A DNA stretch of 63,634 nt, the filler included, from Stramenopiles sp. TOSAG23-6 (taxonomy: Eukaryota), in assembly GCA_900128565.1 (NCBI GenBank). It is 10 parts of 10 records of this genome, joined end to end, with 100 filler letters (N's around TTAATTAATTAA, not from the genome) between each part and the next. Parts side by side here need not be neighbours in the genome. Positions count along the whole stretch, not along the records: positions 7,690 to 15,271 come from LT636545.1; 9 more parts are not named here. One strand, 5' to 3'. Made by a program: the position numbers and the translations under genes. The notes under the pieces are model-generated. The model saw only the letters and a program-made list of their open reading frames with translations, did not search any database and was not told the DNA's origin. Below, one piece after another: positions 7,690-63,621 of this stretch; within the stretch, counting starts at the first letter, position 1, and every line of letters starts with the position of its first letter.

Positions 7690-7744
7690 TTTGTACCTAA
7701 CAAATTTTAGTTTTTTTTTTTTGAAATATTTTTCCAAAATACAT

Positions 7745-9152: not shown

Positions 9153-11159
9153 CTATCTTTTACGTTCATAAGGATGCAAAACCCACTTTGGACTGAAAAC
9201 CGATATTTCGTCTCTCATCTTTTGTGAGCGTAGTCTGCTATTTGTCATGGCTTTAACCGAATCTAGAACTGGTTTAATCAAAGGCTTTTGTTTTATACTG
9301 AGGATTGGATTTTCTATCATATGGGATCTCGATTGTCGAGAGCTGATTGGCATAACTACACTGCTTGGCAATGACCTATGTGTACTTTGTTTTTCTGTAT
9401 TATAGGCAATGATTGTATCAGCTGCTCCATCTCCAACATCATCTACATAAGTTCTTTTGTTAGAAGAGTGATATATCGCTACATTAAAACGAGTTGACTC
9501 ATTCTGATAGGAATCAGATTTACCTCGTGGACTTTCTGAGTTATTGTTTTTCCCGAAAAGTTCATCACGAGTAGCACATTCTTTGACATTACAATGATCA
9601 AAGTAATACTTTGGGTCATTGCCCAAATCATGATATTTTGTATTCTGTGGAGAAACCAAAAGACCACCAAAGTTCCCAGCAGTATGGACGCCCATTGTAC
9701 TAAGATAAACACTTGGCGGTCGATTTTTATCCATGAAAGATGTCATCGGTTGAACAGTTAAAGATTCTTTTAGTTTTCTATTTTTGTTTTCGGCTTCATT
9801 AATATCAGCTTTATTATTCAAATGTTTACTTTTTTGTTTCTCAAAATTTTTATTTTTCTTTGATGGATCTGTATTCTTTTGATCATTGTATAAAAATGTT
9901 CCTTTTCGTTTCATTGTTTCAGATGTTTTACTGTCTTGTTTCAAAATGGAATGTATTTTAGAAAAATATTTCAAAAAAAATTCGTTAGGTACAAAATTTC
10001 GTATGAAAAAAAAANTCAGATTNGAAAAAAANTAAAACATACATTAGTTTTCGTACGATGTTTTGTAAAATTCCGTAATATCGTTTTGGGATTTGGATGG
10101 GGTCTACTAGGGGCAGTCAGAGGTCTTCCTTGTGTCCTCGTTCTATCTGCTATTGCAACATTTTTTTCTAATTGCAAATGTTTTTGTTTTTGTAATCTAT
10201 TTTTTTCCCTCTGGGCAGCGGACCATTGCAATGCCTCATTCATAAATTTGCGACTTGACATCGCTGTATGTTCTATTGGGAGATTGAATTCATTTGAAGA
10301 AAATGAAGGTTTCCTCAAATTCATATATCCTTTCTGACTACTAAAGGGAAGGGAAGCATTCCTCAGTCGGTCCATGTCTATATGTATTAGGAAAAAATAT
10401 TTTACATTCAAATGTTTTGTTAGGTATGAAATTTTCGTACAAAAAATGAAAATAAATTTGAAATTGAAAACATACATGATTCACATCAAGAAATGAGTTA
10501 TCAGAACACCAATACGAAAGACTTAGCATATGGCTTCCCTTGTGGCGTGTGTCACATTTCATTGCAGATAACTTTTTACGTTTACTATTGACAGTAGGGT
10601 TAGGTGTACTACAATTAGAATTGGCTTTTGTTTGACTCAATCTATTACTTCTATCTATAGTTTTTGGGGGAATATATCCTCCTTCTTTACCCCAAACGGG
10701 ACCATGATAATTTGATAATGAATATGTGTTATCCTTTTCAGTTATACGAGGTTTAAGCGTTTCTGGTTCCAAATATGTTGAAGCATGGACTCCTCCGTTA
10801 TCTAAGGCATCACCGTTTATTCGTACACTGGTCAATTGAGGTACTTCAAGTTTAGCACGCATTGATTCTTGCACAACACGCAATGAATCTTCTAATTTCA
10901 CGATGTCATCTGTAATTTGATTGATTTCACTATGTGATACATTATACTGCGATCTTTGTTTCGGTTGAACTTTGAGTTTACGAGTCCAGGCTTGTCTTTG
11001 TTGTAGTCCAATCAAATGAGACTTTTTAGAAAATAATCGTTGTTTCTTTAACGTCACCGATTGAGAGAGCCGAGCAGGTAATTGTTCTGCTGCTGGGCGC
11101 CATAACTTATTACCACTCATTAGTAATGTAGTATCAGGCTTCCATTTTACCTCCCTCAT
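9153..11159 (-). CDS. Uncharacterised basic protein, 3 exons (11159-10476, 10381-10043, 9950-9153)
   Basis: Three ORFs join in frame when two family introns are removed (NH|IDM; TN|SIL). Confidence 0.65.
9951..10042 (-). mobile_element. Family intron, GT...AT, 92 nt
   Basis: AAT|GTATGT...GTACCTAAC...AAAATACAT|TCC; restores frame. Confidence 0.8.
10382..10475 (-). mobile_element. Family intron, GT...AT, 94 nt
   Basis: CAT|GTATGT...CTAATACAT|ATAGAC; the AG 4 nt downstream is out of frame. Confidence 0.78.
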
Positions 11160-13343: not shown

Positions 13344-15156
13344 CTATAAAATAAATTTAGTTAGGTCCATCTTTGTCAACATGGAGCCAAGTTTTTCATC
13401 CACATCTTTGGNAGTAATTGTTACAGTTGAATCAGGCTTCATGTCCGAAGCGTCAAAAGATATATCATCCATCATTCTCTCCATGACNGTATGAAGACGC
13501 CGAGCACCAATATTTTCGACTTGAGTATTCATCTCTGCTGCAACATGCGCAATTCTTTGNATTGCTTCATCCTCAAAGACAAGTTTTACACCATCTGTTT
13601 CAAGTAAAGCAATTTGTTGACGAATCATATTCACTTCTGGTTCAGTAAGTATACGTAAAAGATCTTTTTCTTTCAGACCATTCAATTCNACACGAATNGG
13701 AAGACGTCCCTGTAACTCTGGTAAAAGATCAGCGGGNTTACAATGATGGAAAGCACCAGATGCGATAAATAATATGTAATCTGTATTTATGTTACCATGT
13801 TTGGTATTGATAGTGGAACCTTCAATTAAAGGCAACAAATCACGTTGCACGCCTTCATCAGANGCATCACCTGAATTACGACTACCCTCCGCATTGCAAA
13901 TTTTATCTATCTCATCGATGAAAACGATACCATTTTGTTCTACTAGTTTTATTGCATCTGCAGTTAAATCACTATCGTCCAATATTTTTTCGATTTCATA
14001 ATTTTCCAAAGATTTCCGAGCATCTGGAACCAACATTTTTTTTNTCTTCATTGTAGGTGTCGGTGGACTTCCAGCATTTCCACGACCTTGNAGCTTACTA
14101 ATTAAATCAGCAATAGGAACTGCGCTAATACCATTTGCATCGCCACCACCAGCCATCAACGTCTGGTTGCCTGGAGGGGTAACAGGAATCTCAACTTCGA
14201 CTGCAATTTTATCGAGTTCTTTACTATGATACATTTTAAGCCACTTTTGCATATCATCTGGNTCTTCTGAACCAACTANCTGTTGAATAATTTGGTTTGC
14301 TACTTTATCCTGAACCATAGGTAAAAGAGCTTCCCGTTTTAGCTTTCGCATTAAAGTAATGTATTGTAAAAAAAAAGTCAAATTTCAAATTCATTAGTCA
14401 TAACAAAAATTACAAAAAAATTGTCTAGAAAAAAATCTAAAATTACAAAACAANTTGTCTAAAAAAAAATCTAAACTTCTTAATAAAAACATACATGCCC
14501 TGTTCCACAAGGTCTCGAATGATCATATCCACGTCACGACCGTGAAAACCAACTTCAGTGAATTTCGTTGCTTCGACTTTTAGAAAAGGTGCATTAGCAA
14601 TCTTACTCAATCTCCGTGCTACTTCAGTTTTTCCACAACCAGTTGGGCCAATCATGAGAATATTACGTGGCATTACTTCCTTTTGGAGTTCNTCGGGAAG
14701 TTGCTGACGCCGCCAGCGATTTCTCATGGCAACTGCCACAGCTCGCTTTGCGTCAGACTGTCCTACAATATGCCTCTCGAGTTCAGTGACAATTTCGCTA
14801 GGTTTCATATTTTTCAGTTCTACAACTTTTGACATGACTGCTTTAACAGTTATTTCACTGTTATCTTCAACTAGACCAGACACTAAAGGATCCTTTTTTT
14901 TACTGCCCGAAGTGTCCCCATTCGTCGTGTCTGTAGAACTGGGGCCAGTTGATAAAGATTGTATACCTTGACGTGAAAACACAGCTGAGTGATTTCTTAA
15001 AATGGGTGTACCCGCCAAGATGCCATCAGACGCAGGAGAGCGAGCAGATGTATGTAATGAACGAATACAAATAGGAATAGTTCCTGTAGACCATTGCGTA
15101 GACCGCTTACCAAAGCTAGATAGAATACATCGAGCTGTTGCACCAGCAGAACTCAT
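13344..15156 (-). CDS. hslU: ATP-dependent protease ATPase subunit HslU, mitochondrial-type, 2 exons (15156-14495, 14358-13344)
   Basis: [44 protein letters not shown]; Ser/Arg-rich N-terminal extension. Confidence 0.95.
14359..14494 (-). mobile_element. Diverged family intron, GT...AT, 136 nt
   Basis: GGCAT|GTATGT...ACAATACAT|T gives EQGITLMRK. Confidence 0.75.
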
Positions 15157-15425
15157 ATTCTAGAAGAACAGCTAATGTATTTTATATATTGGAAGTCGAG
15201 CTGATGATCCCTTTTTGTGTGCCTCTTTTTTGGAAAGTTTTTTGACGCGAGTTTTCCGAGTTTTCCGGAATNNNNNNNNNNNNNNNNNNNNNNNNNNNNN
15301 NNNNNNNNNNNNNNNTTAATTAATTAANNNNNNNNNNNNNNNNNNNNNNNNNNNNNNNNNNNNNNNNNNNNTTTGTACCTAACAATTTTTTTTAGATTTT
15401 TTTGAAATATTTTTCCAAAATACAT

Positions 15426-16915
15426 GAAAATTGAATGTACGCCTGCGTCATATACATCTTTAATAGATTTTTTAATGTTGGATGGAAATAGAAAAGATGC
15501 TTTAATGATTTTGAAACAAATGAAGGAAGATGGAGTTGAACCTGATGAAAGAGTAGAAGCAGCACTACAAATTCATCCACTAGAACTAGCTAAAAAGAGA
15601 CTGAATCGTCTATCATACTTAGTTACGTTAGATACTGAAGGACAATTTGAAGCACAGCGTTTATACTCTTCTCTATTAGCAGCAAATGAAGCAACAGATT
15701 TTCACGCCCGAGTCTTGGAAAAATCAGGTTTAATCCATTCTTTACAGAAAAAACAAAAACCTTTGCGAAGTCTTGACGAACGGAAATTCTTTTTAGGTCG
15801 ATTACGTCAATATTTAGGCACGGATAGCGTCAAAGGTCAGTCTATGGCTATGAAGTTGTATGGAAATCTTCTCTCAGCTGGTGAAGCTGTACGTTTTCAT
15901 TATTTCAATTATTTGAATTATTTCAATTTCATTTTTTTTTAAATAGGAAATGTTGTACCTAACGTATATTTTATCAATTAAAAAAAAATATATTTCTGCA
16001 CAATAACTACTGTAGACCACTGCAACTTAATGATTGAATCCTCTTGGTCTTCGTCAGATGCAAGAGCTGTAATTAATGAAATATTGGAGAAATATTCAGC
16101 TGATTCGAGTAAATTATTAGATGTGACATCCTATAATGCTTTAATGTATCATTTTATGATTGAAGGGCAACAAGCAGAGGCTGGATCTATCGTCAAAGAA
16201 ATTCAATCTCGTGGTTTGTCTCCAAACAAACGTACTCGAGTGATTTTAACGTTAGATGCCAAAAGTCTAGGTAGAATGAGAATGAGATCTTTTAGTCGAT
16301 TAATAAGGCTAGGATCAGAAGGTCGACAACAGAGTCGAATTTTATTTGAAAAATTGTTACATGCAAAAGAAGCTGATGTGATACACTGTAATTATATGTT
16401 AAGACATGCATTAGGTGCACAAGATGCAATGACACTTTTGAATAGAATGATGTCAAGTGGATGTCCAGTAGATACTATATCTTTCAATACGGTCATTACA
16501 GAGTTTTTGATTTCTGGTTTTAAAGACAAAGCGTTAAGTCTAGCATCATCAATGAAGTCTCATGGTGTACCCCAAGATAGACGGACAATGCAAGCTCTTT
16601 CTTTAACTAAACAAGATCTAAGTAAAATGAGAAGTTCAAAACTTCAACAATTTCTAAAGCTAGGAATTGAGGGACAGAAAGCAGCAGAGAAATTATATGG
16701 ACATCTTTTACATTTTGGTGTTGCTGATAGATATGTACGTTTTCACAATTTTTTATCTAATTTTTTTTCGTACGAAATTTTGTACCTAACAAATTTTAGG
16801 GGTTTTTTTCAAATATTTTTCCAAAATACATCAAGTAGAAATTATGCAAAGGTTTCATGCGTCAAAGCATTTTGCAGGGGAAGCTGATAAAGTAGAAAAT
16901 ATTGAATTTGAATGA
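15426..16915 (+). CDS. PPR-like helical repeat protein (5'-truncated; exons 15426-15888, 16009-16734, 16832-16915)
   Basis: SYTSLID...MKEDGVEPD, SYNALM...SRGLSPN and SFNTVI PPR-like motifs. Confidence 0.75.
15889..16008 (+). mobile_element. Family intron, GT...CT, 120 nt
   Basis: GCT|GTACGT...CAATAACT|ACT gives EA|TVDHCN, matching the internal repeat EADVIHCN. Confidence 0.62.
16735..16831 (+). mobile_element. Family intron, GT...AT, 97 nt
   Basis: TAT|GTACGT...AAAATACAT|CAA; the two nearest downstream AGs give a stop or a frameshift. Confidence 0.75.
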
Positions 16916-18447: not shown

Positions 18448-18712
18448 ATTACGTACGAAATTTTGTACCAAAAATCGCATAATAATTATTATGCGATTAT
18501 TATGTGATTTTTGGTAAATCACATAATAATTATTATGTGATTATGTGATTTTTGGTAAATCACATAATAATTATTATGTGATTATTATGTGATTTTTGGT
18601 ACAAAATTTCGTACGTAATGTCGCTATAAAAAATGTAAAGTCATTTGTAAAGCGATTTGTAAAGCATTTTGAAAATGCTTTTTGGTACAAAATTTCGTAC
18701 GTAATGTTGCTA
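18448..18712. repeat. Intergenic inverted-repeat (MITE-like) element carrying the intron-family core motif
   Basis: Arms ATTACGTACGAAATTTTGTACCAAAAATC (from 18448) and its reverse complement (ending 18619); internal palindromes ATCACATAATAATTATTATGTGAT; third arm copy at ~18679-18712. Confidence 0.8.
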
Positions 18713-19593: not shown

Positions 19594-21377
19594 TCATGTA
19601 TGTACAATACCATTTCTTTCAAGATGTTTCACTTCTTCAGTGCTATAACCCAATATTGTAGTTAAAATTTCTTCTGTGTGCTCACCTAAAGCAGGAGGTG
19701 GTCTTCTTATGGAAGTGGGTGTCTTTGATAATAACACGGGAGATCTTCTATATTGTGAAAAAAAAAAAAAATTATGATTTAGATTATACCATTATTATTA
19801 AATTTCATGAGTGTAAAAAAATCGTTACACACAAAATTTTCTATGAAAAAAAATTCTATGAAAAATTCGAAATTTTTTTTTTTTTTTTTTTTTGAAAAAT
19901 TCGAAATTGTTTTTTTTTTTTTTTTTCTTTAAACCTACATTGTCTTCAAGCTTTCTGTTGTATCATGTACCAAATTATTATGTATGACCTGAGGATCTTT
20001 GAATACATCAGCAATGCTATTGATTGGTCCAAACGGAATTAGACCTAAAAATTGATTTGACCAGTGTGAGATTGTTTTTTTACTGAATATTTCTGATAGT
20101 ATTTTTATGAGTTCGATTCTATTTTCGACTCTTTTCTGATTACGTATTGTGAAAAATATTTTTTTTTTTGGTGAAAATTTCTTAGGTACAAATTTTCGTA
20201 TGAAAAAAAAATCGAAATGGGTAAAAAAAGTATAATGAAAAAACATACACTATTAAACTTGGGGTTATGTAACAATTTATGGCCATCATTGCCTAACCCA
20301 GAACATAATTTTATCCATTGTGATTCATTACCAGCACCAATCACCATTTTTCCGTTTGAAGAATCAAATGCTTGATAGGGTACAATTGATTCATGAGCTG
20401 TCTCTAGTCGAATAAATGTCCCATCAGTATTATTGTTATTATTAGGGTTAGGGTTATTATTATTAGGGTTAGGGTTAGTACTAGTGCTAGGATTATTCAT
20501 TTGAGATGCATTAAGATGGCTACTTCCAATATTCGCCAGTGAATGAACACATGTATCGAGTAGTGATACCTCTATTTTCTGACCAATACCAGTCTTTTCT
20601 CTTGAATAAAGAGCTGATGAAATGGCAGCTTGTGCATGAACTCCAGTCAATTGGTCAATTAATGCAACACCAGTCTTGCAAGGTGTATCCTTTGTCCCAG
20701 TGATACCCATCAAACCTCCAATACCTGATACAATGACGTCATATCCTGGATGCGTGGCATATGGACCACTCGCCCCATAACCAGAAATGGAGCAGTAAAT
20801 CAGACGAGGATTAATTGTAGACAAATTCTCATATCCTAATCCAAATTCATCCATTTTACCTGTCAAAAAGTTCTCTAGCAAAACATCTGCAGAGGCTACT
20901 AAATCTTCTATTATCTTTTTTCCAGCTGAATGATTCAAATCGACAGCAATTGATTGCTTGTTTCGGTTTGCCCCTACAAAATATGTTGATGTACCCTCAC
21001 TCGTTGCTGGAGGTGTCCAACTTCTAGTATGATCACCTGAACCTGGTATCTCCTGTAAAGTGTATATTTATGCTATAAATATATGTATGAAGAATACATT
21101 ACAAATAAAAAGTGTGAAAGCAAAAACAACACACGGAAGAAGATATATAATTCTAACTATTTAAAATATTTAAAAAATGACATACTACCTTCCAAACTTC
21201 CGCGCCGTAATCACCCAAAGACTGTGAACACATTGGTCCAGCCAGCACTCTAGTCAAGTCAACGACACGAATACCTGCCAAGGGACCAGCATTTGTTTTG
21301 CTCGAAGTAGTGCAAAATAAACGAAGAGCAGGAACAATTTTGCGTGATATACTATAATTCTTCAGCGAGTAATACAT
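19594..21377 (-). CDS. Family III CoA-transferase (CaiB/BaiF, SUGCT-like), 4 exons (21377-21186, 21052-20249, 20141-19939, 19747-19594)
   Basis: [53 protein letters not shown]. Confidence 0.92.
19748..19938 (-). mobile_element. Diverged family intron, GT...AG, 191 nt
   Basis: ACAAT|GTAGGT...TTCACAATATAG|A gives KTIRSPV. Confidence 0.7.
20142..20248 (-). mobile_element. Family intron, GT...GT, 107 nt
   Basis: AGT|GTATGT...CAATACGT|AAT gives [13 protein letters not shown] (CaiB-family PRFxTNxxRVxNR). Confidence 0.78.
21053..21185 (-). other. Ordinary canonical GT-AG intron (non-family)
   Basis: GTA|GTATGT...TTACAG|GAG gives KV|EIPGSGD; lacks the family core motif. Confidence 0.8.
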
Positions 21378-33227: not shown

Positions 33228-36200
33228 TTATAAAGTGTACCTTGGATACCCTATAACATTATTTTTTTCCTGTAATGATATGACTGATTGCCTTAAAGAC
33301 TCCTCATTTTGATTACTCGCTTTTAATTTTTGTGTAGTATCTTCAAGTAAGCGTTGCTGTCCCTCCAAATGCCGAAGCATATGTAAGTTACCATCAGCAA
33401 AACTAGCTCTATATTCGTTCAACTTTTCATTAAATTTTTGATGGTATTCTTCATTAAACTGATCATTTGCCTGATAGTGTTTTGCTCGGTGATCTTGTTC
33501 ATCCGTTTTAGTCACTGAAAATTCCAATAATCTCTGGCACAATAATCCCAATTGTTGTGCAGCCGCTTGTGCATGTTTTTCTGTTCCCAACAATTCTCCT
33601 CCAGATGCAATGTCCTGGCACCACCACCGATCACTACCCTTTAAATCTTCTTTAAATTTTATGATGGACGGGTGATTAGCGTGGTTAGCACAAATGACCT
33701 GAGTATGATGTATTTTGGAAAAATATTTCAAAAAGAAAACGTTAGGTACAAACTTTCATACGAAACAAAATCGAAATTGAANAAAAATAATACATACATG
33801 TATCAAAGACTTGCGTAATATATCTATTTGATTTGCAAGCGACACGACAGAAGTTGACATAATTTCTCTATCGTGCTCTATGTGTTGTGAAAAAATATTT
33901 GAAAAATTTTGAAAAATTCGTTAGGTACGAAATTATCTAATAAAAAAAAATATTTTGAAATTTAAAGTGGATCATGTACAAGCGGCTCCTTTCAGAGTCC
34001 AAAGTTTCCGCAAGTTTCTGTTGCTTCTCTGCTAGTTCTACAGCACTAGTTAAATCATTTCGTAAATGTTTCAAATCTCGTGAAGCATCAACTTCATACT
34101 TCCGCAAACGTGAAAGCTCTGATAAGGTAGAATCCGAAACGCTACATTCAAGTTCCTGAATTTTTTCTACAAGTACTCTTTGTTTAACAGAACTTTCCTC
34201 TTGTGTTGCTCTAAGTTCTTCTCGTAGTCTTATTTCTACTTGTCTAGAATTATTTATATTATTCAACGTCAAAAATTGTTCTTGATGTGTTGCAGAAAGA
34301 GTACCACGCATATCGGCTAATTCAGAACGGAGTGATTGAATCGTTTTAGCTTCCTTTTCCAACAAAATTTCAAGTTGCTGTTTTTCGTCCTCGGTAATGT
34401 TTCTATTATTCTTTGCTTCCTCAGCGTCATTACGGTGATTTGTTGCAATTATTTTCATTTTTTCAAGACGATTTAGAGATTCATCTCGACTGTTTCTAAT
34501 TTTATGTAATTCGTTATACAACATACGATATTGTGTATTGCAATCACTTCGAGACACTTGAATAATTTCGTGTCCTTCAATTAACAAAGATAAAAGTTTT
34601 AATATAATGTTTTGCTGATTGGTTAATTCACCAGATAAAATTGGAGCAACCTTTTTGAGCAAAGAATTTGATACCCATGTACCAAAATGTTCTAACCTTG
34701 TACGTAACGCAAAGAGGCCAGATTTATCCAGTACCAAAGAATTAGAATTTTTATCCTTTTTAAAAACATCAATCGGCAACTCCCCTTTCTCCCAGTTACT
34801 CAAAAAGCTATCATTCATATTAGCATCATTCGATTGGTTATTCATTTNATCATCACTATTTCTATGTATCTCCGAAATAATTGAATCATTCTTTTCATTA
34901 TTTTTCTCATTTTGACGATTATTTTCTTCGTTGCCTTTTTCATTTAGATTTTGTAAGCCTTCTTTTTTATTACTTGATGTTTCATTGTACCAATGTTTTC
35001 TACCTGAAACAGGGCTAACACCAATCATTCTAACTGTATTACTGCCTTTTTTGAAAACGTTAACATTCTTATCTGAACTGTTCAAATTTACATTCATTTC
35101 TTTACATTCATTATAAAATAATGAAACACTATCATGCTGTTCTTCTGTTAGGATTTTCTGCATACATTGTTTTATATCATCCTCGATTGAATTTAATGCG
35201 TCAGTAGCTTCTTTGTATTTCTCAATTTCCGAATTTTGTGAATTCATTTTTTCGGTATGATTTAAAAGATCAGCTGTAAGACGTTGAATTTTTGAAACAG
35301 ATTCCTTCGCGTGATTCTCTATTTCTTTACATTTAATACTTGATTCTTCATATTTACTCAATACATCCTCATGATCACCCTTGAGTTTACTCAATACATC
35401 CTCATGATCACCCTTGAGTTTTTTAGATGCTAATGTAACTTCCTCAAGATAACGAGTTTTTTCATTCAACTGGTGTGTCAACTCTCTGTGCTTTTCAGCC
35501 AAAGAATCTCGTTCATTTCGAGTCACATCATGTTCTAAATCTTTCTGTTTGTTTACAACTTCAAGCTGCTTTTCAAGTGCTGCTACTTCGGCATTGGCTG
35601 CATCATGCATGACTTGCAAAGAAGCCGTATTGTGAAAAATATTTAAAATTTAAAATTTGTTAGACACAAAATTTTCTATGAAAATAAATTTAGTTAGAAA
35701 ATTCAATTTTGAAAACGTCCCCTCTTTTTCTTTTGATATTTGGACATCAGCGTTAATATCACTAATATTCATTAACAATTCCTGGTGAATTGCAGCTAGC
35801 TCTATCATTTCTGCATCCCTACCTTTTAAAGTGTGCTGAAGAGTATCTCGTTCTTTTATAGATTCATGTATTGTGAAAAATATTTTTTTTTTTTGGTAAA
35901 GAAAAAAATTCATTAGGTACAAAATTTACTATGAAAAAAAAATAAATTTGAAAGAAATGATGAAAAGGTACATCATATTTTTTTGACATATTTTCAAGTT
36001 CAAGTTTTACAATTGTTTGAGATTTTTCAGACTTTTTGAGCTGACTACTTAACATATTTAATTTTTCTGCTGCCTCTTGAACATAATCTAAAAGAGCATT
36101 TTTTTCAACTTCTAGCTGATCATTTTGTTTTTTCATATTTATCATATCCTGTCCGACATTATTCAATTTATTTATATCATTTTCATATTTTTCGCGTAAG

Positions 36201-37401
36201 TGGAAAATTTCATTTGACATCGCGAATGTTTTTGATTTATTGCAACGCTTTTTGAGTTTTGCGATGGTGTCTTTTTGATTATTTAACTCAGTCCGTGCTA
36301 AACTCAACTTATCTTCCGATATTTTCATACGATCAATTGCCTCTTCCAATTGGAAATGAAGTGCTGTACTAGTGTGCGATGTATTTTGGAAAAATATTTG
36401 AAAAAAAAAAAACTAAAATTCGTTAGGTACAAATTTTCGTACGAAAAAAAAATCGAATTTGAAAAAAAATAAAACATACAAGTCGTGTCATAAAAGTTAT
36501 TTGCATCTTTTCGCAATTTCAAGATTTCCTGTCTCTGTTGCTGAATTTTGGTTTGTAACTTTGCAACATATCCACATGATGGTCCTTTCTCATTATTCAC
36601 CTGATCATTCTGCTGTGATACATTTGATACACTACTGCAATTTTGTTTATTATACTCATTATTAGGGTTAGGATTATTAGGGTTAGGGTTATTTGGGTCT
36701 AGGTAAGTGCTCTCTTGAGTTTTCTCGTTATACCAATAAAACTTGTCCGTGACTGGACATGTGCCCTTTATCCATATAGTATTAGTTTGTCTCGTAGACT
36801 TATTATCATTAGTATTTTCCTTGATATCAACATACCGTGAGTGCTTACTATTTTCCGATTTACTCCAAGTTGAATGACACTCTGACCAAGAAATTTCACC
36901 ATCTGCTGAAACGTCATATGCATCATATATATATCTCATGTCTTTCTCATTTGGTATCGGTCGAATACCAAGCATGGCCACTCCTCTCTGGAACTCTTTG
37001 AACGTAATCTTGTTGTTACGGTCAGCGTCGCAAGTAAAAAACATTTGAGCATCCGTACGCGAGCGACGTTCAAGCTGTCGCTGAAAATTTTGAAATATAT
37101 GGTTGCGGTTTGAATTCATCGTGCGCTCATTAGGCAAATTTAAATCAGAAGAAAGTTTTGCAGATCCTCGTGAATTTTCGTCGAGTGAAATAATATCATG
37201 GCCACCTTCGAAAACGTCACTAAAAACATCCATATTCTTCAAATTGTCTCCAGTTGCAGCTGCTACTGCAGCAGCAGCGGCCCAGTCAGTTGAACCTTCA
37301 GGCGGGATGCTGTAACCAGCACCTCCGATATTGAAATTATCCATTGTATAAGGTTCATCAATGGGTCCGAAATTTCTATCGAATCTCTCTCCATCCGGCA
37401 T
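33228..37401 (-). CDS. EF-hand + WW + long coiled-coil protein, 6 exons (37401-36480, 36378-35972, 35865-35721, 35624-33980, 33879-33798, 33707-33228)
   Basis: DADRNNKITFKE and DVSADGEISWSE EF-hands; W..G...KFYWYN..TQEST..DP WW; the frame is continuous only after removing 5 family introns. Confidence 0.75.
33708..33797 (-). mobile_element. Family intron, GT...AT, 90 nt
   Basis: CAT|GTATGT...AAAATACAT|CAT in frame. Confidence 0.75.
33880..33979 (-). mobile_element. Family intron, GT...AT, 100 nt
   Basis: TT|GTACAT...CAACACAT|AGAG; the adjacent AGs are out of phase. Confidence 0.72.
35625..35720 (-). mobile_element. Family intron, GG...GG by family alignment, 96 nt
   Basis: GAGG|GGACGTTTT...CAATACGG|CT; contains an in-frame stop so it must be removed. 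Confidence 0.55.
35866..35971 (-). mobile_element. Family intron, GT...AT, 106 nt
   Basis: GAT|GTACCT...CAATACAT|GAA in frame. Confidence 0.78.
36379..36479 (-). mobile_element. Family intron, GT...AT, 101 nt
   Basis: ACTT|GTATGT...AAAATACAT|CG in frame. Confidence 0.75.
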
Positions 37402-38293: not shown

Positions 38294-38492
38294 NNNNNNN
38301 NNNNNNNNNNNNNNNNNNNNNNNNNNNNNNNNNNNNNTTAATTAATTAANNNNNNNNNNNNNNNNNNNNNNNNNNNNNNNNNNNNNNNNNNNNGTTTTAT
38401 TTTTTTTTCAATTTTGAATTTATTTTCGTACGAAATTTTGTACCTAACAAATTTTTTTAAATTTTTTGTTGAAATATTTTTTCAAAATAATT

Positions 38493-39211
38493 GGTGGCGG
38501 TTCTAAGTTAGAAAATGAAATCAATAGAGAAAATCTCAAGACAATTATTCAATATTCATCATCTGCAAAAGCCTGGTGGCTTGATTTTAACAAGAATAAG
38601 AATTGTTTTCATAGAAAAGATATTCTATGTAAAGTATGTCATCTTGAAGAGAAATTAAAAAATGCAGTATCATCTGAAAAAAAAGGACATCGAAATTATG
38701 AAACACATTTATGTGCAGCGAAATTGGTTCGATGTTTGGGTGGAGGTCGTGTGACAAATTGCAAATCTGGTAAAGATCGAACATCAATGTCAGTAACACT
38801 AGAACAATCTTTATTGTTATCGGATCATTTTGGTTCAATGTTACCTCAGAAATGGCGCCCAAATAGTCAAGTATTAGTTGGTAAAGATCATGATAAATGT
38901 GCTTCAAATCTACCCCTTAAAATAGCTGAATTAATGCGAGGACATGGAACAAGGATTATTAATGTATATTTTATTCATTTTAATTTCAAATTTTTTTTTT
39001 TATGAAAATTTCGTAGCTAACAAAAAAAAAACATTTTTTTTGAAATATTTTTCTAAAAGAACAGGCACATGAAAATATGGGATTTCCAAAATTCGCATTC
39101 AATGCATTACAAAGGAAATGTTTACCCGAACCATACCGACCACCAGTAGATACACTTGTGTCAATGACACATACAGCAACAATTGGGCGCAGAGGGTTAT
39201 CTATTACATGA
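38493..39211 (+). CDS. INPP4: Inositol polyphosphate 4-phosphatase C-terminal part (exons 38493-38963, 39065-39211)
   Basis: CKSGKDRTSMSVTLEQ catalytic motif; FAFNALQ..P..YRPP. Confidence 0.88.
38964..39064 (+). mobile_element. Family intron, GT...AG, 101 nt
   Basis: AAT|GTATAT...AGAACAG|GCA gives RIIN|AHENMG. Confidence 0.8.
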
Positions 39212-39675: not shown

Positions 39676-41527
39676 ATGGATGTGAAACCAATTGTATTCG
39701 TGCCAATGTGTGCAGATCTGCTTCACGATGGTCATATCAAGTTGTTAAACGTAGGAAGAAAGTTTGGATCTATTACAGTTCTATTAATGACCGACGCTGC
39801 AATGCTTACATACAAACGTACGCCCACAATGTCGTATGAGCAAAGATATACTTTAATACGTTCTTTACGCCAAGTTGATAATGTTTTACCATGTAATGGT
39901 CCACATACGTACTCATCAATGGTAACACAGTATAAACCTTTGTTTTTCCTCCACGGAGATGACTGGAAAAATGGTCCTCAATCGGCACCCAGAGAAGCAG
40001 TAATAAAAGCTTGTTCCGTATATGGAGGTAAGGTGATTGAACCACCATATCATAAAGGTGTTTCTAGCACATCTCTACAAAAATCCATTAAAAGCACGAT
40101 ATATGAACAAAAGTGTCTCGGAGTGATTCTTCGTTCTGCTTTAAACGATTTAAAACGAACGCCAGAACATGTCACTTTTGAACATGTACGTTTTCAAAAT
40201 TGAATTATTAATTTTTTTTCATACGAAATTTCGTACCTAACGATTTTTTTCCATTAAAAAAAAAATCACAATACATGGTATTGGCACAAGTATAATACAT
40301 CGAATAATATCAGGACATGAATTTGATGAAGAATGTCAATCTGCAATGATTCGATCAATTACATCGTTGTATCCAATTGACAAGAAAGAACTGGTTATGA
40401 ATCATGATACAAGTTATTGTGGTATCTGGCATATGTTAGCCAAGACAACTCAAAAAAGTGGCCGAGTGATTGAGCGAACGAATGAAAATGGTATGAGTTC
40501 ACCATATTATCGATATATGGACACAGCAGTATCATCTCTTGCACCCTTCAAACCTGAATTAATTGAAACCTTAATGATGGTTGAGAATAATGATGCTTAT
40601 CATCCAAATATAGTAATGAATAAAGGACATTTACTTGCACAGGTGACATTCTTTATAGGTCCTGTAAACTTTTATTATACTATTAGAGGTAAAAGATTAT
40701 GTGTCCCAATGAATAGTGGGGATTCGTGTTTAATTACTCCATTTATACCACATTCATTTGCTTCTCGAGATCCATCAAAATATTCTGCAATTGTAGCTGT
40801 AACATTCAGTGGAAATGTTCGAGGTTTAATTGCAGATTTAATGCATCTTGATAAAAAAGTTTTGCTAGATGTTGCTGGAGATGCAAGAAAATCAAAAGAT
40901 GTACAATTACGCCGAATCCAAAGATATGCTGATTTGCGTGGAATCAGTGATATGAAAAAGCTTATGAGTGATTTGAAGAATAATCCTCATGAGGTTGCCA
41001 AAAAATTAAAAGTGTCTGTAGATTTAATAAGTGAAAGACCACTTAGTATTTCTGATGAAGTAATCTGTGAACATAAAAACACTAATCCGATCCCAGTTTT
41101 GCAAAAATCAAATGAAAAACATTGTTTAGCTTGCTCCAAAATAATGCCCGAAGTCGGAGGATATGAGTGGATACTACGCAGTGCTGATACATCGTGCAGT
41201 CCATTCTTCAATTATATCTATAACCATGGAACTAAAAGTGTTAAACTACGAAATTGCAATTCAGGTGTAGATGTTATTGTTGCACCTGGTGATAGTTTGA
41301 TTTTGAAACCGTTCATCACAGTTGTATTTGCCCCTTGTGAATCATTTGAACCTAATCCTATCCATAACAGAAATAAATCAGAAGCAAGTACTATGTCGCA
41401 GTCATATGCTAATTTGCTCGTTGTTAAAGTTGGAGGGTGTGTCCAGCGATCAACTCTAGATGAAATATCTACATTTGATGACGCGGGAAGGAAACGAATG
41501 TTATCACAAAAGAGTCGATGGTGGTAA
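39676..41527 (+). CDS. mpnS: Cytidylyltransferase - methylphosphonate synthase (MpnS/HEPD-family) fusion, ~586 aa (exons 39676-40185, 40277-41527)
   Basis: N-terminal MCADLLHDGH..MTD..YKR..HGDDW..PY.KGVSST; then LNDLKR HTH, YYRYMDTA, PFKPE, NKGHLLAQ..FIGPVNFYY, MNSGDSCLITPFIPH. Confidence 0.85.
40186..40276 (+). mobile_element. Family intron, GT...AT, 91 nt
   Basis: CAT|GTACGT...CAATACAT|GGT joins the two ORFs inside the HTH (TFEH|GIGTS). Confidence 0.85.
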
Positions 41528-41637: not shown

Positions 41638-42680
41638 CTAATGTACATTTTTATACTCTAATTCAATTTCTTTTAATTCTTTGTTCGAGACTTTGATCTT
41701 CATAGCATTAGATATGTATTTTGGGAAAATATACCATAAAAAAATGTCGTCAGGTACAAAATCTTCATAGTAAAAAAAATTGAAATTTAAAATGAATGAT
41801 GGGAACGTACATGATTTCATTTGGGACGACTTGCGCTGGTATTTCTTTCAAGCATAGTAAAATATGTTCAAAATCAAAAGGAGTTCCTTCTACACAAGAA
41901 AAAAGCCATTCGTGTTTTGATTGTAGGTTATCGGACGTATCCTTATTATAATTTCTAGTATTTGGTACATTTCTGGTATATTCTTTTTTGTTGGTAAATA
42001 ATTCAGTATCTAGTTGCGTATGAGTCAAGTTATTATTCTTATATTTGCTATTTGTGTCATTTCTATCATTCCTTGTATGTTTTGTAGATGGATTGGGAAT
42101 TTCTATTGAAAGAGGATTTTCATTTTTTCCATGATTTACCCAACTATTTTCATATTTTTTATCATTTCCCCAAATATAGCGACCAATTGAATCAACTGCT
42201 GAATTTACAAATCCAAATGTTTCTTCATATTGATATTCCTTTTCTTGGACAGACTGATTGGTATTTGTAGTTCTTCTATTTGCTACATCAAGTTTGTTTG
42301 GATCTATTTCAATTCTAGATGATTGGATACTTTGTTTACAGCTTTCTTCATGGTGATGTCTATTGCCCATTGATTCCATTTCTTCCATTGGCCGAGAAAT
42401 TTTGGTTTTGCTTTTTTCTTTTGTATATTTATCATTTTCATTATTTAGCATAGTATTTTGTGCAAATTCTTGTTGAATCCAAAATTGTCGTCCATCCTCA
42501 ATCATTTGCAATAATGCCAAAGAAACACGAAATACTACTGTCCAACCCTCCGCAAGAAAGCAATCCCAAATACGCCGTACAGCATCAAATGAAAAATTGT
42601 AACTAAATATTGTCATAAACCATTGTGAAGCATACATGCATTTTGTAAAAATATTTAAAAAAAAAAGATTTGTTAGGAAC

Positions 42681-42715
<35 letters not shown>

Positions 42716-43661
42716 AAGTTCAATCTTTAAAAAGTACATTGTAGGAGTTATATTTATCTCTGCAAAATAAGCAGCTAGTTTAGGCAAATGTTTTTCTATT
42801 AGTTTCTGAAATTGATAAAGTAAAACATTAAATTTTGGCAAACCTTCTCGAAATATTCCCTTCATGTCATGTGATTTCATAATTGAATCAAGCATCCAAA
42901 ATGCATTTTCTTCCGGCATATAACATAGAAATATACCTGCGATATATCCCATGCCTTGACAATAACCTACATCAGGATCGTGTACAGAATATGCACATAA
43001 GATGTTGTAAAGAGCTCTTTGACCAGCATGTATTGTGAAAAAATATTTTGGTTAGAAATTCGTTAGGTATGAAATTTACTATGAAAAGAAATATTTGAAA
43101 TTAATTTTGAAAACGTACACCACCTGAGTCGCGGAAGAATTGATGCTTTGGGAAAGTTCGGCTTATATCTCGGGTTATAATTGCAGTATGTGGAGATTTC
43201 ATAGTACTATACGCTTTGTATTGTCCTGGGTTAGCCCATAACAATTCGTCACCCCCTGTTAATGCAGCCCACATAGCACCTCGTAGTGGATCAGAGATCC
43301 CTTTTCTAATACGGAGTTTTAGTGCTCTTCGACGGCGTGGTGTTGATACATCAAGATTAATAAGTGTTGCCTGCCAGAATTCTATATTTGTTTGACCTAT
43401 ATTTATTGTTTTATTGTTATTGATTGATTTGGTATGCCTGGTTTTATTCTTTGGAATTTTACTTTTCTTCCGACCGTGTTTTTCACCTTCATTAACTCTA
43501 CTATTAGTGTTGTTCTTTCTGTGTGCTTCAACAATAATACCTTTGTTCTGATTCAAAACCCTCGACGTTTTATTATTTACTTTATCAAATACTCGAGTCC
43601 GATTAATTTTTGATATACCCATTAACCCGAAACTCAGCCCAAGTCCAGTACTGGCGTTCAT
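41638..43661 (-). CDS. TBC-domain Rab GTPase-activating protein, 4 exons (43661-43119, 43027-42738, 42635-41811, 41713-41638)
   Basis: RKGISDPLRGAMW, IITRDISRTFP, VGYCQGM, MYASQWF, RIWD. Confidence 0.92.
41714..41810 (-). mobile_element. Family intron, GT...AT, 97 nt
   Basis: AT|GTACGT...AAAATACAT|A in frame. Confidence 0.75.
42636..42737 (-). mobile_element. Family intron, GT...AT, 102 nt
   Basis: AT|GTACTT...AAATGCAT|G restores PTMYASQWF; otherwise it is read as a poly-F insert. Confidence 0.82.
43028..43118 (-). mobile_element. Family intron, GT...AT, 91 nt
   Basis: GGT|GTACGT...CAATACAT|GCT gives DSGG|AGQRALYNIL. Confidence 0.82.
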
Positions 43662-44819: not shown

Positions 44820-45869
<1,050 letters not shown>

Positions 45870-45900
45870 TTAGGTACAAAATTTCGTATGAAAACAAAAA

Positions 45901-45957
45901 GTAAAGTAAAGTAAAGTAAAGTAAAGTAAAGTAAAGTAAAGTAAAGTAAAGTAAAGT
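45901..45957. repeat. (GTAAA)n microsatellite inside a family intron at the contig end
   Basis: About 11 perfect units. Confidence 0.9.
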
Positions 45958-46109
45958 NNNNNNNNNNNNNNNNNNNNNNNNNNNNNNNNNNNNNNNNNNN
46001 NTTAATTAATTAANNNNNNNNNNNNNNNNNNNNNNNNNNNNNNNNNNNNNNNNNNNNACAAAATTTCGTACGAAAAAAAAATTCGAATTTGAAAAAAAAT
46101 AAAACATAC

Positions 46110-47031
46110 ATAGATTTTCTGGGGTTTTACCAAGGATAGATGTTTGACTATCACCTAGCAAAGTGTGAGAGTCACCACCAACAACAACGTCGACTCCTCG
46201 AAGTTGTGAAACAATTTGTAAATCTGCAGCATATCCAATATGTGAAAGCAGTAGGTATTTTGAGGAAATATTTCAAATTTTTTTTGTTTTGTTAGGTACA
46301 AATTTTTCATAGTAAAACAAAAAAATGGTAGGTACAAAATTTAAAAAATACATGATTGTAGTAATTGGAGGTGTTAAAGATTCAAGCTCATCAATGGCTA
46401 ACTGTGCTGATTCTACCTCATCTGTGAGAATTGTTCCATTTGTAGGATTCGAACTTCTCATAGTTTTTCCCTTGACATCAATACCAACAATTCCAATTTT
46501 TTCGCCAGACTGTAAAGTGACCACTGTATACGGTAATATCTTCCCCTTTAAAGGACTGTTTAATCCCGGTTTTATATTAGCACCAAGTATTGGTGTTTTA
46601 CCACATGTGCTACTAGATTGTACATCATCAATAAATTTTGACAAAACGTCGTCTCCATCGTCAAACTCGTGATTTCCAACCTCAAACGCATCAAAGCAAA
46701 TATGATGCATCATTTTTGCGTCAGCCTTACCTTTAAAGAGTGTATAATACTGGGTACCAGTCAATGCGTCACCAGCATGTAGTTTAATAGGATTGATCTC
46801 CGATGCTACTAGTCTATCAAATAAAGAGACAATGAGTGGAAATCCACCATACGTAACCTCAACCTCTTCTACTTTGCTTCCGTCTTGACTTGCAGTAAGA
46901 TTTAACGTTGTCGCATCTAACTTGAACGTCTCTTCGTCGAGGTGGCCGTGGTGATCATTGATGTGTAAAATATTGAATTCAAGGCTCTCTGATAATGCAA
47001 ACAATACAACGAGTGCATGTAAGACGTTCAT
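46110..47031 (-). CDS. Secreted 5'-nucleotidase/metallophosphoesterase, 3'-truncated (exons 47031-46352, 46252-46110)
   Basis: Signal peptide; ILHINDHHGH, HAGDALTG, GNHEFD, LLSHIGY, VVGGDSH. Confidence 0.9.
46253..46351 (-). mobile_element. Family intron, GT...CT, 99 nt
   Basis: AT|GTATTT...AAAATACCT|A gives TIILLSHIGY. Confidence 0.75.
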
Positions 47032-51770: not shown

Positions 51771-53419
51771 TCATCTTTTCGAACCTGTAACAAGTTGGTG
51801 AAGAATATCTTTTGTGTAACGTAATCTCTTGGCAATATCTGGTCGTTTCGCCGAAACTGAATCAAGACCAATATTTATTCTTTTACCAGATTTATCTTTA
51901 TAAAGGCATACTCGAGAATCGCCATATAAATGAACTTCACTATTATCAAAAAATGATACTTGGACAGTTTGGTCACTTATACGAAATAATACAGCATGGC
52001 GTGTTTTTACCCATTTTTTTACATATGTAAGATCAGAGGTACCAGAACTACGAGATCGTGCAGTTTTTTCCTCTTTTTCAGCTTCATCGAATGGAGTTTG
52101 TTGCTGCAACAGATGTGTACGAAAATGCTTCAGTAGAGTTACCTTCTTCTTCAATTCGGTTGGATAACTTAAAAGAGTGTGACGCTGCCTGACGACTGGA
52201 CTTCGTTTCCCATTATTTTTACGGCGTGACCTTTCTATATATTCAAAATTATGACCATTATTAGATAGAATAATTTTTGAACTATCATTAAAATAAACCC
52301 CGACACTACCATCAACCATCAAATAACCCAACCCATATTTACTCGTATAATCAACCCATTTTGTTACCCATGTCGTGATCCGTTCAGATGTACTTGATGT
52401 ATGTTTTGCGTCTCTGTGTGATATTCTCTGATATTTTTCATCCACTTCTTCTCGGTATCTATTGGTGTGTCCTTTGTCATCACTCGAACGATTACGGTGA
52501 GGTTGTGATTTCATACCTTCATACATTAAACCTGTATTTCCACTCAATGGACTTTTTACTTCAAGATAATCAAGATCATGCTTGTTGCTACTTTTCTTAC
52601 TATTATAATTATTTTCATTTTGTGAACTGCGACCAGCACGTCCACTAGTGACGACATTACCAGAGCGAAAAGATGATCGTCGCTCATTACCATCTCGAGG
52701 TGAAGTTTTCATTCCACCAGATTTTTTTTGGCGAACACGTCGAGATTCACCGCTACTGTGTTGAGAACGCGGAGATTTATACTTTTGTGAACCACGACTT
52801 GAACCATCTGCTGTTGTATGTCCACCATTACTCACTCTAGCTCTTCCACNATCACCATTTCCATTAGGTGCATCAAACGCTAATTTTGTAAAGGCAGTTG
52901 ATAAGTTTTTATCTTTTTCTTCAGTGGGATGGAATTGCATCCCTTGTTTAGATGTAGCATGATTATATTGTTGCGAGTTATGTCTGTGTGAATTTTGTTT
53001 ATGATTACCCAACACAGGTCTTGAATAAACACCAGAAAGTTTTTCCGGATTATTTTTCGATTGAGAATTTCTGCTACGTCGTGCTGAAGATGATGTTCCC
53101 GCGTTAAGATCAGTTTTAATATTTTCAGTATTTGCATGACGTTTCGATGAGGTAGAGTAGGGGAAAAAAGGTTTCACGGTTAAGCTCTCTTTGAAGAGTT
53201 GTTTTGGGATATACAGTGAAGAAATGTCAAATTTGAAATTCGTTAGGTATGAAGTTTTCTATGAAAAACAAACTAATTTGAAATTCATGATGATAACATA
53301 CATAAAACCACTATTAAAGAAGGGATGATTTTTCATTTCAAGTAGAGTAGGTCTGGATTCTGGCCGAGGACTTAAAATCCATTTAATCAAGTCTTTTGCT
53401 TCCCGAGATATAATAATAG
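51771..53419 (-). CDS. PLK: Polo-like kinase, C-terminal part with two polo boxes (exons 53419-53302, 53208-51771)
   Basis: WVTKWVDYTSKYGLGY, VGVYFND, KKKVTLL, YVKKWVKT, QVSFFDN. Confidence 0.93.
53209..53301 (-). mobile_element. Family intron, GT...AT, 93 nt
   Basis: AT|GTATGT...CTGTATAT|C gives FFNSGFIPKQL. Confidence 0.8.
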
Positions 53420-54196
53420 CTGTATAAGTGTGAAATATTTCCAAAAAGATTACATTCTTTCAGTTAGAGATTTTTCCAGACGTTAAAAAAACATATAATA
53501 AAGCTGTATCAAACCTTAATGAGTGAATAGCATAGTAAAATATTGAAAAAAAGATGACCTACATGTATTGTGAAAAAATATTTTTTTTGTAAAATTCGTT
53601 AGGTACAAAATTTCGTACGANNNNNNNNNNNNNNNNNNNNNNNNNNNNNNNNNNNNNNNNNNNNTTAATTAATTAANNNNNNNNNNNNNNNNNNNNNNNN
53701 NNNNNNNNNNNNNNNNNNNNAATAATATGGAAAAATATCTCGTAGGTAGAATGATAAATAATATATAACTTATCTAGTAGAATCTATAATTATAATAAAA
53801 GGACAGTACATCATGCTAATGTAATTTTTAAATTATCATTATCATCTAAGGATTGAGTTCATTAATATTTTTATTAATTAAGACATTAATTCAGTTTTTT
53901 AAAAATTCATTAACTTAGGGTTAGGGTACTCGATTTTGAGACTAGAATCTGATAAACTCTCTCTCGTGTCTCGCTGATCTCTCTCACTGATCTCTCACTG
54001 ATCAGCCTATAAAGTATATTTTTCCAGTATACGTCGAGGTACTGTAATTAAAACGCGGAAAATTCTATCTGTCCACTCCGGGATAAATGTGTAATGAATG
54101 AAACCTTTTCACACTCTTGCCATATTCTTTCTTATTTTGTATTATTAGGGTTCGTAAGTGATTTCTACTATAATAGTTGCTTGTCCAATAAAGGTG

Positions 54197-62667: not shown

Positions 62668-63621
62668 ATCGTCTTCTGAAGTAAACACGAAATTAGCTAA
62701 TTTGATATCCCTATGAGCAATATCTTTGGAATGACAATACTGAATTGCTCCTAACATTTTCCGTACCTAGAGAGAAAACAAAATGTAAAAAAAAAAAAAA
62801 TCTTAGGTACAACATTTCGTATGAAAAAAAATTGAAAAAAAAAAATTAAATTTTTTTTTCTTAGGTACGAAATTTCGTATGAAAAAAAAATTGAAAAAAA
62901 AAATAAATTTTTTTTTCTTAGGTACAAAATTTCGTATGAAATATTTAAATAAAAAAACGTACGAGACGTCGAGTCGCTGATTCTGAATATCGTTTACCAG
63001 GTTGTGCTTGTAATCTATCATATAACTCTCCCCCAGTACATAACTCCATGACCATATATTGTACAGAAATATTCTAAAACTTGAAAAAAAAATTATGTTT
63101 TGCTTTTTTGCTTTTTTGCTTTTTTGCTTTTTTGCTTAGGTACAAAAATCCGTATGAAAAAAAAATGTTAGGGTTAGGGTTTGATATATTTTTTTTGTCC
63201 ATTTGTAAAGCAAACATTGAAATGAGTGAGGAAAAAAGTACATATGAATAATATCACCTTGTCTATATGTTCGATGGAGTTTAACAATGTTTGGATGATC
63301 AAGTTGTTTTAAAATTTCGATTTCGTTTAAAAGTGTTTTTCGATATTTTGGTAACACTTTTTGTAAGTCAATAATTTTCATGGCATAACGAACTCTAGTG
63401 CGTCGATGTTCAATGACGACGACGGAACCTGTCGTACTTTCACCCAACTCTCGTGTACCAATATCATACACATCTTCTACCTTTTCATCTGTACGTATGG
63501 GTACGAGATTACTATAGGATGAACACATCCGTAAAGGTGGGTTGTGTCGTGGTTCAGTCAAATAATCATCATCTACACCGCTTTTTTTATGACTATGACT
63601 TGTACTAGAACATAAACCCAT
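62668..63621 (-). CDS. CAMK/CDPK-like Ser/Thr kinase, N-terminal part (exons 63621-63242, 63053-62963, 62766-62668)
   Basis: MGLC myristoylation/palmitoylation-type start, YAMK, NEIEILKQLDHPNIVKL, MELCTGGEL, HRDIKLAN. Confidence 0.9.
62767..62962 (-). mobile_element. Family intron, GT...AG, 196 nt, three tandem core motifs
   Basis: CTC|GTACGT...CTCTAG|GTA gives RRL|VRKML. Confidence 0.8.
63054..63241 (-). mobile_element. Family intron, GT...AT, 188 nt
   Basis: AT|GTACTT...ACAATATAT|G gives IHMVMELCTGG. Confidence 0.82.

Follow-up and report, generated by a model that had tools for sequence, protein, structure and literature searches.

We analyzed a stretch of 63,634 nucleotides from the genome of Stramenopiles sp. 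TOSAG23-6 (GCA_900128565.1; this whole stretch is referred to as the window) and found in it a dense family of short, similar introns, which is very likely an Introner-like mobile intron family. For the model as a whole, we lean slightly towards a non-autonomous, Introner-like mobile element of ~90-110 nt that would have proliferated within genes of a marine protist of stramenopile-like affinity, and we regard it as on balance probable that a true 2-bp target duplication furnishes the acceptor of these introns. In the window, N44-TTAATTAATTAA-N44 spacers link ten short contigs; it contains one further gap of 135 N's and has a GC content of ~0.33. The first-pass annotation had claimed Introner hallmarks, namely a mini terminal inverted repeat (TIR) and an AT-biased duplicated target, for a family exemplified by the intron at 9951..10042 (minus strand, 10042->9951, 92 nt, AT at both the exon end and the intron end, phase 0; called the focal intron). 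Its minus-strand junctions read ..ACTAAT|GTATGTTTTA...CTAAAATACAT|TCC.., the exon's AT lies at 10043-10044, and removal of the intron joins the host open reading frames (ORFs) 10019-10480 and 9156-10043 in phase 0.

Copies, consensus and subfamilies

An iterated hidden Markov model seeded from a few copies gave 45 nhmmer matches to the ~100-nt element at E<1e-3 in 63.6 kb, i.e. ~1 copy per 1.5 kb of window. End-to-end alignment was possible for 22 full copies, the mean pairwise identity of which is 0.66. In the sense orientation the consensus begins with GTAYGTTTT(A/C), followed by a T/A-rich stretch, nine T's and a near-palindromic 18-mer core, CGTACGAAATTTTGTACC. The core runs into TAAC, thereby forming TACCTAAC, a look-alike of the yeast-like branch site, and is followed by a T-run, GAAATATTTTT and C(C/A)AAATAC plus two bases. 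Two linked variants were distinguished, one combining 5' ..TTTTA with 3' CCAAAATAC and the other 5' ..TTTTC with 3' CACAATAC (linkage table 9/3/4/13, Fisher p=0.0095), which shows that the family has a subfamily structure. Inside some single introns the core is multiplied in tandem. The copies occupy unrelated positions in unrelated genes (HslU, GidA/MTO1, CoA-transferase III, DEAD-box, RabGAP-TBC, PLK, EML-like, PPR and kinase). As had been noticed before, contig ends tend to fall inside copies: of the 20 edges of contigs or gaps, 9 are located within a family match or at most 20 nt from one, and two further edges (30622 and 45957), judged by eye, end in intron tails.

Position of the splice junctions

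All junction counts rest on 29 introns with both ends fixed; left out were 29206-29358, 25788-26088 (which holds the 135-N gap), 30287-~30405, nine copies cut by contig ends and the extra cores of tandem arrays. When each intron was excised so that it starts with the G of GTA and ends with the second base following ..AC, exactly one frame stayed open, over at least 60 nt on each side, in 29/29 cases. The three intron phases seen in the first pass all occur, phase 0 being dominant (phases 0/1/2, 18/2/9). The last two bases of the exon are AT in 20 introns, TT in 3, CT in 2, GT in 2, GG in 1 and TC in 1, with T at exon -1 in 27/29, which agrees with the 20 of 30 copies ending in AT and 28 of 30 ending in T that had been counted earlier. 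The last two bases of the intron are AT in 20 cases, AG in 5, CT in 2, GT in 1 and GG in 1; intron -2 is A in 25/29, and intron -1 is T in 24 and G in 5. Intron +4 is T in 17/29 and C in 12/29.

With AT on either side, most junctions allow two readings, AT..AC and GT..AT. The register was fixed at the intron 45684-45577 in the DEAD-box helicase gene, in which the exon ends in CT and the intron in AT (written CT/AT; the same notation is used below): the GT..AT cut yields ..VQE-L-ARDFLG, and the shifted cut yields Ile. Among the 52 matches to DEAD-box homologs 49 carry the motif, and 47 of the 49 have Leu at the tested site; of the two remaining motif carriers, P0028 departs from the motif there and P0002 is a model of the window's own locus. 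The invariant Leu thus shows that the intron begins with GT and includes the second dinucleotide as its end, and the AT-AC reading of the junctions is ruled out by this test. Five family members (pairs AT/AG or TC/AG) end in AG where the others have AT, so that the same 5' signal must be cut before GT. An in-frame TAG forces the AG acceptor in 28870-29120 and 30029-30205, and at 19938-19748 the CoA-transferase C-terminus is found solely in the frame that follows the AG. Judged from sequence, the family members are GT...AT introns.

At the protein level the excised length proves correct: homolog numbering confirms it at five junctions, and the reading frame does so at all 29. The exons meet without a gap at 20248-20142 (residues 285|286 of the solved SUGCT), in GidA at 28870-29120 (193|194), 29456-29555 (296|297) and 29670-29854 (334|335) when compared with homolog P0055, and at 30029-30205 (452|453) when compared with P0085. 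When contigs of three metatranscriptome runs and one DNA run were compared with 38394-45900, no joint spanned one intron cleanly; the runs consist of short contigs, the repeat draws thousands of cross-matches, the joints obtained connect different copies, and the depth spikes on copies do not represent copy number.

A direct two-base match across the introns

The dinucleotides at the exon end and at the intron end are identical in 18/29 introns, 15 of them AT/AT and three non-AT. AT is self-complementary, and AT/AT pairs are therefore compatible with a direct duplication, with an inverted terminus and with a mere consensus alike; the informative pairs are the non-AT ones. The mirrored pairs CT/CT, GT/GT and GG/GG listed in the first-pass annotation were recovered at 15889-16008, 20248-20142 and 35720-35625, respectively, and three or more identical non-AT pairs arose in 0.06% of 200,000 shuffles (p=6e-4; an earlier table likewise gave 0.06%). 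By position, matches exceed expectation at -2 (21 vs 16.7 expected, p=0.0036) and at -1 (26 vs 23.4, p=0.015), and no locus-specific match was found at -3 or at +1 to +8. The correlation between exon -2/-1 and intron -2/-1 that had been proposed as a check is thus present within the window and exactly 2 nt wide. No reverse-complement dinucleotides occur among the non-AT pairs, which makes the match direct and not inverted. A longer duplication (ATG or ATGTA) was rejected because no locus-specific match exists at +1 to +3 and G stands at +1 in 14/29 introns only.

The mismatched pairs known from the first pass are also present, TT/AT at 33979, 36479 and 57375 (and at 25788, uncounted), GT/AT at 43118, CT/AT at 45684 and AT/CT at 46351, and the five AT/AG or TC/AG members add to them. 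The 11 non-identical pairs would lie within the expected decay, given that at 0.66 identity about one third or more of 2+2 neutral bases should have changed. According to the register test the second dinucleotide belongs to the intron, so that a duplication supplying the non-AG acceptor is coherent.

The proposed mechanism starts from an element of which each copy would bring the 5' splice site GTAYGTTTT, the near-palindromic 18-mer, the branch site TACCTAAC, a T-rich tract and a 3' block with the end ..A(A/C)AATAC. The element most likely inserts as DNA at NT, usually AT, and would duplicate this dinucleotide. The left copy would remain in the upstream exon and form its final dinucleotide, as is seen in one intron by the invariant residue and in the five AG members by frame. 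The right copy would become the last two bases of the intron, and the RNA would be cut before GT and after ..ATAC+NN, restoring the coding sequence exactly. Splicing would presumably be performed by the major spliceosome, relaxed on the last intron base (T or G) and with A at -2 in most members. Some copies may since have changed from AT to the canonical AG, as the five AG-ending members suggest.

Observations at odds with a DNA element

A number of results weigh against this model. The duplication signal stems from three loci in a small sample of introns, among which GT/GT alone was checked against a homolog, CT/CT and GG/GG lying in genes without a homolog that fixes the boundary; moreover, six of the nine non-AT exon ends face AT. 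The terminal inverted match is GTA(T)/(A)TAC and spans 3-4 nt only. With T or C at +4 it is indistinguishable from splice signals, and TIRs of the length found in miniature inverted-repeat transposable elements (~10 nt or more) were not found in the 29 introns. RNAalifold on the 22 full copies returned 0 pairs, i.e. no consensus structure. The mini-TIR hallmark of the first-pass annotation is therefore not upheld, and its further claim of a 2-bp target duplication supplying a non-AG acceptor survives in part: the match is direct, 2 nt wide and coherent in register, without a TIR to accompany it. The target context A|AT|T of ISL2EU transposons was not seen (exon -3 is C in 13 and A in 7, downstream +1 is G in 14, A in 6, C in 5 and T in 4 of the 29 introns), and no transposase domain was detected in the 30 ORFs scanned within the window.

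The distribution of the copies points in the same direction. Sense orientation relative to the flanking ORF was found for 39 of the 45 matches; four lack a scored ORF, and the two apparent exceptions are a reverse-strand echo of the palindromic core and a copy with a 165-aa sense ORF containing X's. All assignable copies are thus in sense to their host gene, none of the 45 matches being an antisense copy within a gene, and outside coding frames only one copy, a degenerate one, was found (31589..31632, plus strand, core only, downstream of the stop of ORF 31003-31521). If the element inserts as DNA at random, strong purging is needed to leave sense-only genic copies; purging by selection could explain why antisense and non-genic copies are lacking. 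Presence/absence polymorphism was not observed, the DNA contigs of run X2 carrying the introns at all three covered sites, and the intron sites of relatives are known from proteins alone.

Alternative origins

The best-surviving alternative, which we consider unlikely, is mobility by way of RNA. The intron would be reverse-spliced into transcripts after ..AT, reverse transcribed and recombined, so that the terminal AT would be the element's own, without any target duplication, and the AT on the exon side would reflect an insertion or splicing preference. The sense-only orientation and the near absence of copies outside genes fit such a spread equally well, as do the lack of a real TIR and the complete set of splice signals carried by the element. 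In addition, 22 of the 26 exon ends outside the mirrored non-AT pairs face AT or AG whatever the exon carries, and Gozashti et al. make the point for AG that a match across the intron alone cannot tell duplication from insertion preference (PMC9860276). Against RNA-mediated spread stand the three non-AT dinucleotides that were copied exactly, one of them verified by homolog numbering, and the restriction of the excess match to the two bases beside the cut. A further argument against it comes from an intergenic inverted-repeat element at 18448-18619 (unstranded, with a third arm at 18679-18705), which lies between divergent ORFs. Its 39-nt inverted arms are 97% complementary, enclose internal tandem units of 41-44 nt and contain the intron core 18-mer CGTACGAAATTTTGTACC. 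On the basis of this shared core, the element is possibly a relative or the source of the intron family.

It is highly improbable that no mobile element is involved and that AT|GTAYGT...ATACAT|G is simply the splice consensus of the lineage (cf. AG|GT...AG|G), with short T-rich interiors converging around a fixed branch site. Ordinary eukaryotes, too, have exon ends that match the intron ends although nothing was duplicated, and two introns in the window share the family termini and have unrelated interiors (14494-14359 and, by eye, 26768-26942). A splice consensus does not account for an 18-mer core that is conserved without a known splicing role and tandemly multiplied inside single introns, for the linkage of 5' and 3' variants 90 nt apart, for contigs that break inside copies or for the locus-specific match at -2/-1. 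Nor does it account for at least 7 such introns in 2.4 kb of GidA, at each of which the closest homolog continues without interruption.

It is hardly credible that the junction pattern merely arose during single-cell amplification or assembly, through chimeras or collapsed repeats. The window is fragmented, holds single N's and a 135-N gap inside a copy, and for at least one 'intron' (29206-29358) an assembly collapse is the best reading. Against an artefact, the frame is restored in 29/29 introns, the introns recur almost unchanged in DNA contigs of independent metagenomic origin (a 2187-nt contig of run X2 covers 44150-45900 with 5 differing letters, introns included), and a full copy with AT/AT ends is found at locus L003 of another collection.

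The DNA element remains the reading that we prefer, and its introns were likely gained in the lineage of the window, as far as can be told from homologous proteins. The closest GidA homolog, P0055, aligns colinearly at the protein level across the covered junctions (66-83% identical per exon), and the DEAD-box homolog P0003 (56%) is colinear across its junction, which argues for such a gain. P0055 has 730 aa on one 3822-nt contig and presumably comes from a collection with genes called without introns. More tentatively, and with considerable doubt, nearly all introns of the lineage might derive from one burst of an ISL2EU-like miniature element, with the duplicated bases as acceptor, a 3' cut set by position after ..ATAC and not by AG, and copies drifting from AT to AG.

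Comparison with known systems

The Introners of Micromonas, Aureococcus, Symbiodinium, Chrysochromulina and Florenciella (PMC9860276) resemble the window family in being high-copy, short, similar introns at unrelated gene positions, in forming subfamilies and in bringing one or both splice sites with the element; there too, a target duplication can furnish a splice site, with the mRNA restored exactly. They are GY-AG introns with 3-9 bp duplications, whereas the window family uses mostly an AT acceptor (also GT, CT, GG and AG) and a probable 2-bp duplication and has no clear TIR. Its host, an uncultured heterotrophic stramenopile-like lineage, is not named in the consulted passages of PMC9860276 and PMC12130899.

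The introner elements of Amoebophrya (PMC7789003) likewise are repeated introns of a marine protist with non-GT-AG boundaries, on which gene finders fail, and their direct repeats overlap the exon/intron borders. In Amoebophrya, inverted repeats of 8-20 nt fold into a hairpin, the direct repeats measure 3-5 nt and the boundaries differ widely between elements; the window family in contrast has a regular GTAYGT 5' end, a CTAAC branch site, an inverted match of 3-4 nt and a 2-nt repeat, without consensus structure. An Amoebophrya-type element was rejected on the last three of these grounds. In Fritillaria borealis (PMC13326754) many introns end in AC or AT as well and are removed by the major spliceosome, and introner transposons whose splice sites are weak are named there as one origin of such introns. 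Fritillaria is an animal, its introns vary at either end and a role is ascribed to duplicated U2AF subunits, whereas the window family has a canonical 5' end.

ISL2EU, a group of the PHIS (PIF/Harbinger-ISL2EU-Spy) transposons, resembles the window family with respect to the latter's probable 2-bp duplication: these cut-and-paste transposons make 5'-AT-3' duplications (PMC4482050). They differ by their A|AT|T context, TIRs and transposase, the counterparts of which were not found (the last in the 30 window ORFs), and three of the duplications in the window are non-AT. AT/AT pairs make up 15/29, as an ISL2EU duplication would give, but AT is also the consensus and self-complementary; the informative pairs are CT, GT and GG. 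Two further intron types were considered and dismissed. U12-type AT-AC introns (start ATATCC.., AC end, branch site TCCTTAAC) are contradicted by the register test, the GTAYGT 5' site and the TACCTAAC branch site, and euglenid nonconventional introns (variable borders, a stable structure joining the ends) by the regular 5' border and the lack of a consensus structure.

Neither the window family nor non-AG introns in marine stramenopile single-cell genomes are described in the consulted passages of PMC7789003, PMC9860276, PMC12130899, PMC5778133, bioRxiv 10.64898/2026.04.17.719054, PMC4482050 and PMC13326754, the supplements of which might list further families. The kind is already known, both as Introners with co-opted duplications and as the non-canonical introner elements of Amoebophrya and Fritillaria. 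In light of these sources, the combination of a GT..AT cut and a 2-bp duplication in the present host appears to be new.

Host genes and occurrence in other collections

The ORFs of the window are ordinary eukaryotic genes, among them HslU, GidA/MTO1, CoA-transferase III, a DEAD-box helicase, RabGAP-TBC, a polo-like kinase, an EML-like WD40 protein, a PPR protein, a peroxiredoxin and a kinase. Their nearest named proteins are gene models labelled eukprot:GSMAST32..., a prefix that hints at a single-cell assembly of a marine stramenopile, and for GidA the next named relative is an Incisomonas transcript (label INCI...). Unlike its neighbours, 1482-7259 is a single open frame of 1926 aa without a Pfam match and without family introns. 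An Rfam scan of the window gave 0 matches.

The DNA of the window is found again in metagenomes from seawater and, more sparsely, in metatranscriptomes of marine origin. Of the 4 loci returned when metagenomes were scanned with the 19-nt core, 1 was a true copy, and scans with a 16-nt core of genome contigs (at least 120 loci) and viral contigs (35 loci) gave chance matches only. When nhmmer was run over the 159 loci listed, no full copy except L003 was found.

Individual family members

The gene of the focal intron contains a second family intron at 10382..10475 (minus strand, AT/AT, phase 0). The intron at 14359..14494 (minus strand, AT/AT, phase 2) in the mitochondrial-type HslU gene has the family termini and a differing, tandem-repeat interior. 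The mirrored CT/CT intron at 15889..16008 (plus strand, phase 0) lies in the PPR gene and is followed by an AT/AT intron at 16735..16831 (plus strand, phase 0). In the CoA-transferase III gene a family-type AT/AG intron was located at 19748..19938 (minus strand), and the mirrored GT/GT intron with the SUGCT junction is at 20142..20248 (minus strand, phase 0).

The GidA gene (plus strand throughout) carries the AT/AG intron 28870..29120 with tandem cores, the AT/AT intron 29456..29555 ending in ATATAT, the AT/AT intron 29670..29854 with two cores, and the family-type AT/AG intron 30029..30205, which ends in CACAATATAG. Two uncounted members accompany them. At 29206..29358, an apparent family intron of 153 nt, the frame is broken and residues 222-258 of P0055 (~37 conserved GidA residues) have no counterpart; the assembler has probably merged two family introns here and dropped a small exon, and a shifted acceptor was rejected in favor of this reading. 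At 30287..30405 the 3' end is degenerate and one conserved Gly is unaccounted for.

Further AT/AT introns of phase 0 are situated at 30937..31035 (plus), 33708..33797 (minus), 35866..35971 (minus), 40186..40276 (plus) and 58273..58376 (plus). TT/AT pairs flank 33880..33979 (minus, phase 2), 36379..36479 (minus, phase 1) and 57375..57480 (plus, phase 0), the last in the EML-like WD40 gene. The mirrored GG/GG intron 35625..35720 (minus, phase 1) starts with GGACGT, and 38964..39064 (plus, phase 0) is an AT/AG intron ending in GAACAG. Three more members lie on the minus strand, 41714..41810 in the RabGAP-TBC gene (phase 2, AT/AT; also carried by a DNA contig of run X2) and 42636..42737 (AT/AT, phase 2) and 43028..43118 (GT/AT, phase 0) in the TBC gene. 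The TBC gene shows a six-base insertion, TACATT, relative to the window at 42358, which occurs both in DNA (a contig of X2) and in an RNA library (a contig of X9) and is a strain variant. Also on the minus strand are the DEAD-box intron 45577..45684 (phase 2; the site of the register test, contained in the 2187-nt X2 contig), the AT/CT intron 46253..46351 (phase 2) and the AT/AT intron 53209..53301 (phase 2, ending in GTATAT) of the polo-like kinase gene. The kinase gene has two introns on the minus strand, 62767..62962 (TC/AG, phase 0) with three tandem cores and a pyrimidine tract before AG, and 63054..63241 (AT/AT, phase 2) with telomere-like and GCAAAAAA repeats. Telomere-like (TTAGGG/CCCTAA)2 pairs were seen inside the latter at 63170-63185 and three times inside ORF 26328-26891 (26460-26610).

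The TT/AT intron at 25788..26088 (plus, uncounted) is split by the 135-N gap, the edges of which repeat the same core. Contig starts cut the copies at 7690..7744, 15372..15426 and 30722..30785 (3' parts, plus strand), at 38394..38493 (plus) and at 46058..46109 (5' part, minus). Contig ends cut 22857..22940 (minus, ending ..ATACCT|, in sense to the minus-strand ORF 22501-22998) and 53562..53620 (3' part, minus); the copy at 45833..45911 (minus), next to a contig end, has an (ACTTT)n run in place of its 5' part. Three sequences of deviating structure were also recorded. The family copy at 26250-26382 has the 5' junction ..AATAT|ATATGTTTTA, with A for the first G, and a 3' block off the consensus, and might be either a dead copy or an intron that begins with AT. 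At 26768-26942 an intron-like sequence with family termini, TT|GTACGTTTTC ... AAAATTACAT|G, has an A-rich low-complexity interior without the core. An antisense core-like fragment, TTGTTAGGTACAAAAATAAGTAC, is in frame in ORF 26895-27800 at 27099-27127 (weak match, E=0.03).

Implications

The public gene models for the window are affected by the family: P0054 and P0056 (28204-30622) translate through family introns, and P0002 (44823-45900) jumps to the next AG, losing two conserved residues. The errors in these three models add poly-Phe stretches or delete conserved residues, and protein sets of the lineage used for phylogenomics are likely damaged wherever the family sits, which here is about once per 1.5 kb.

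The family is relevant to the origin of new introns: with it, a heterotrophic stramenopile from the sea would join the small number of lineages in which intron gain from mobile elements can be watched. Its non-AG acceptor, seemingly copied from the target, bears on the limits of the 3' rule of the major spliceosome, a question under study in Fritillaria and Amoebophrya. If the proposed origin from one burst with drift from AT to AG is true, the present copies would be an intermediate stage, still existing today, on the way from transposon footprint to standard splice site.

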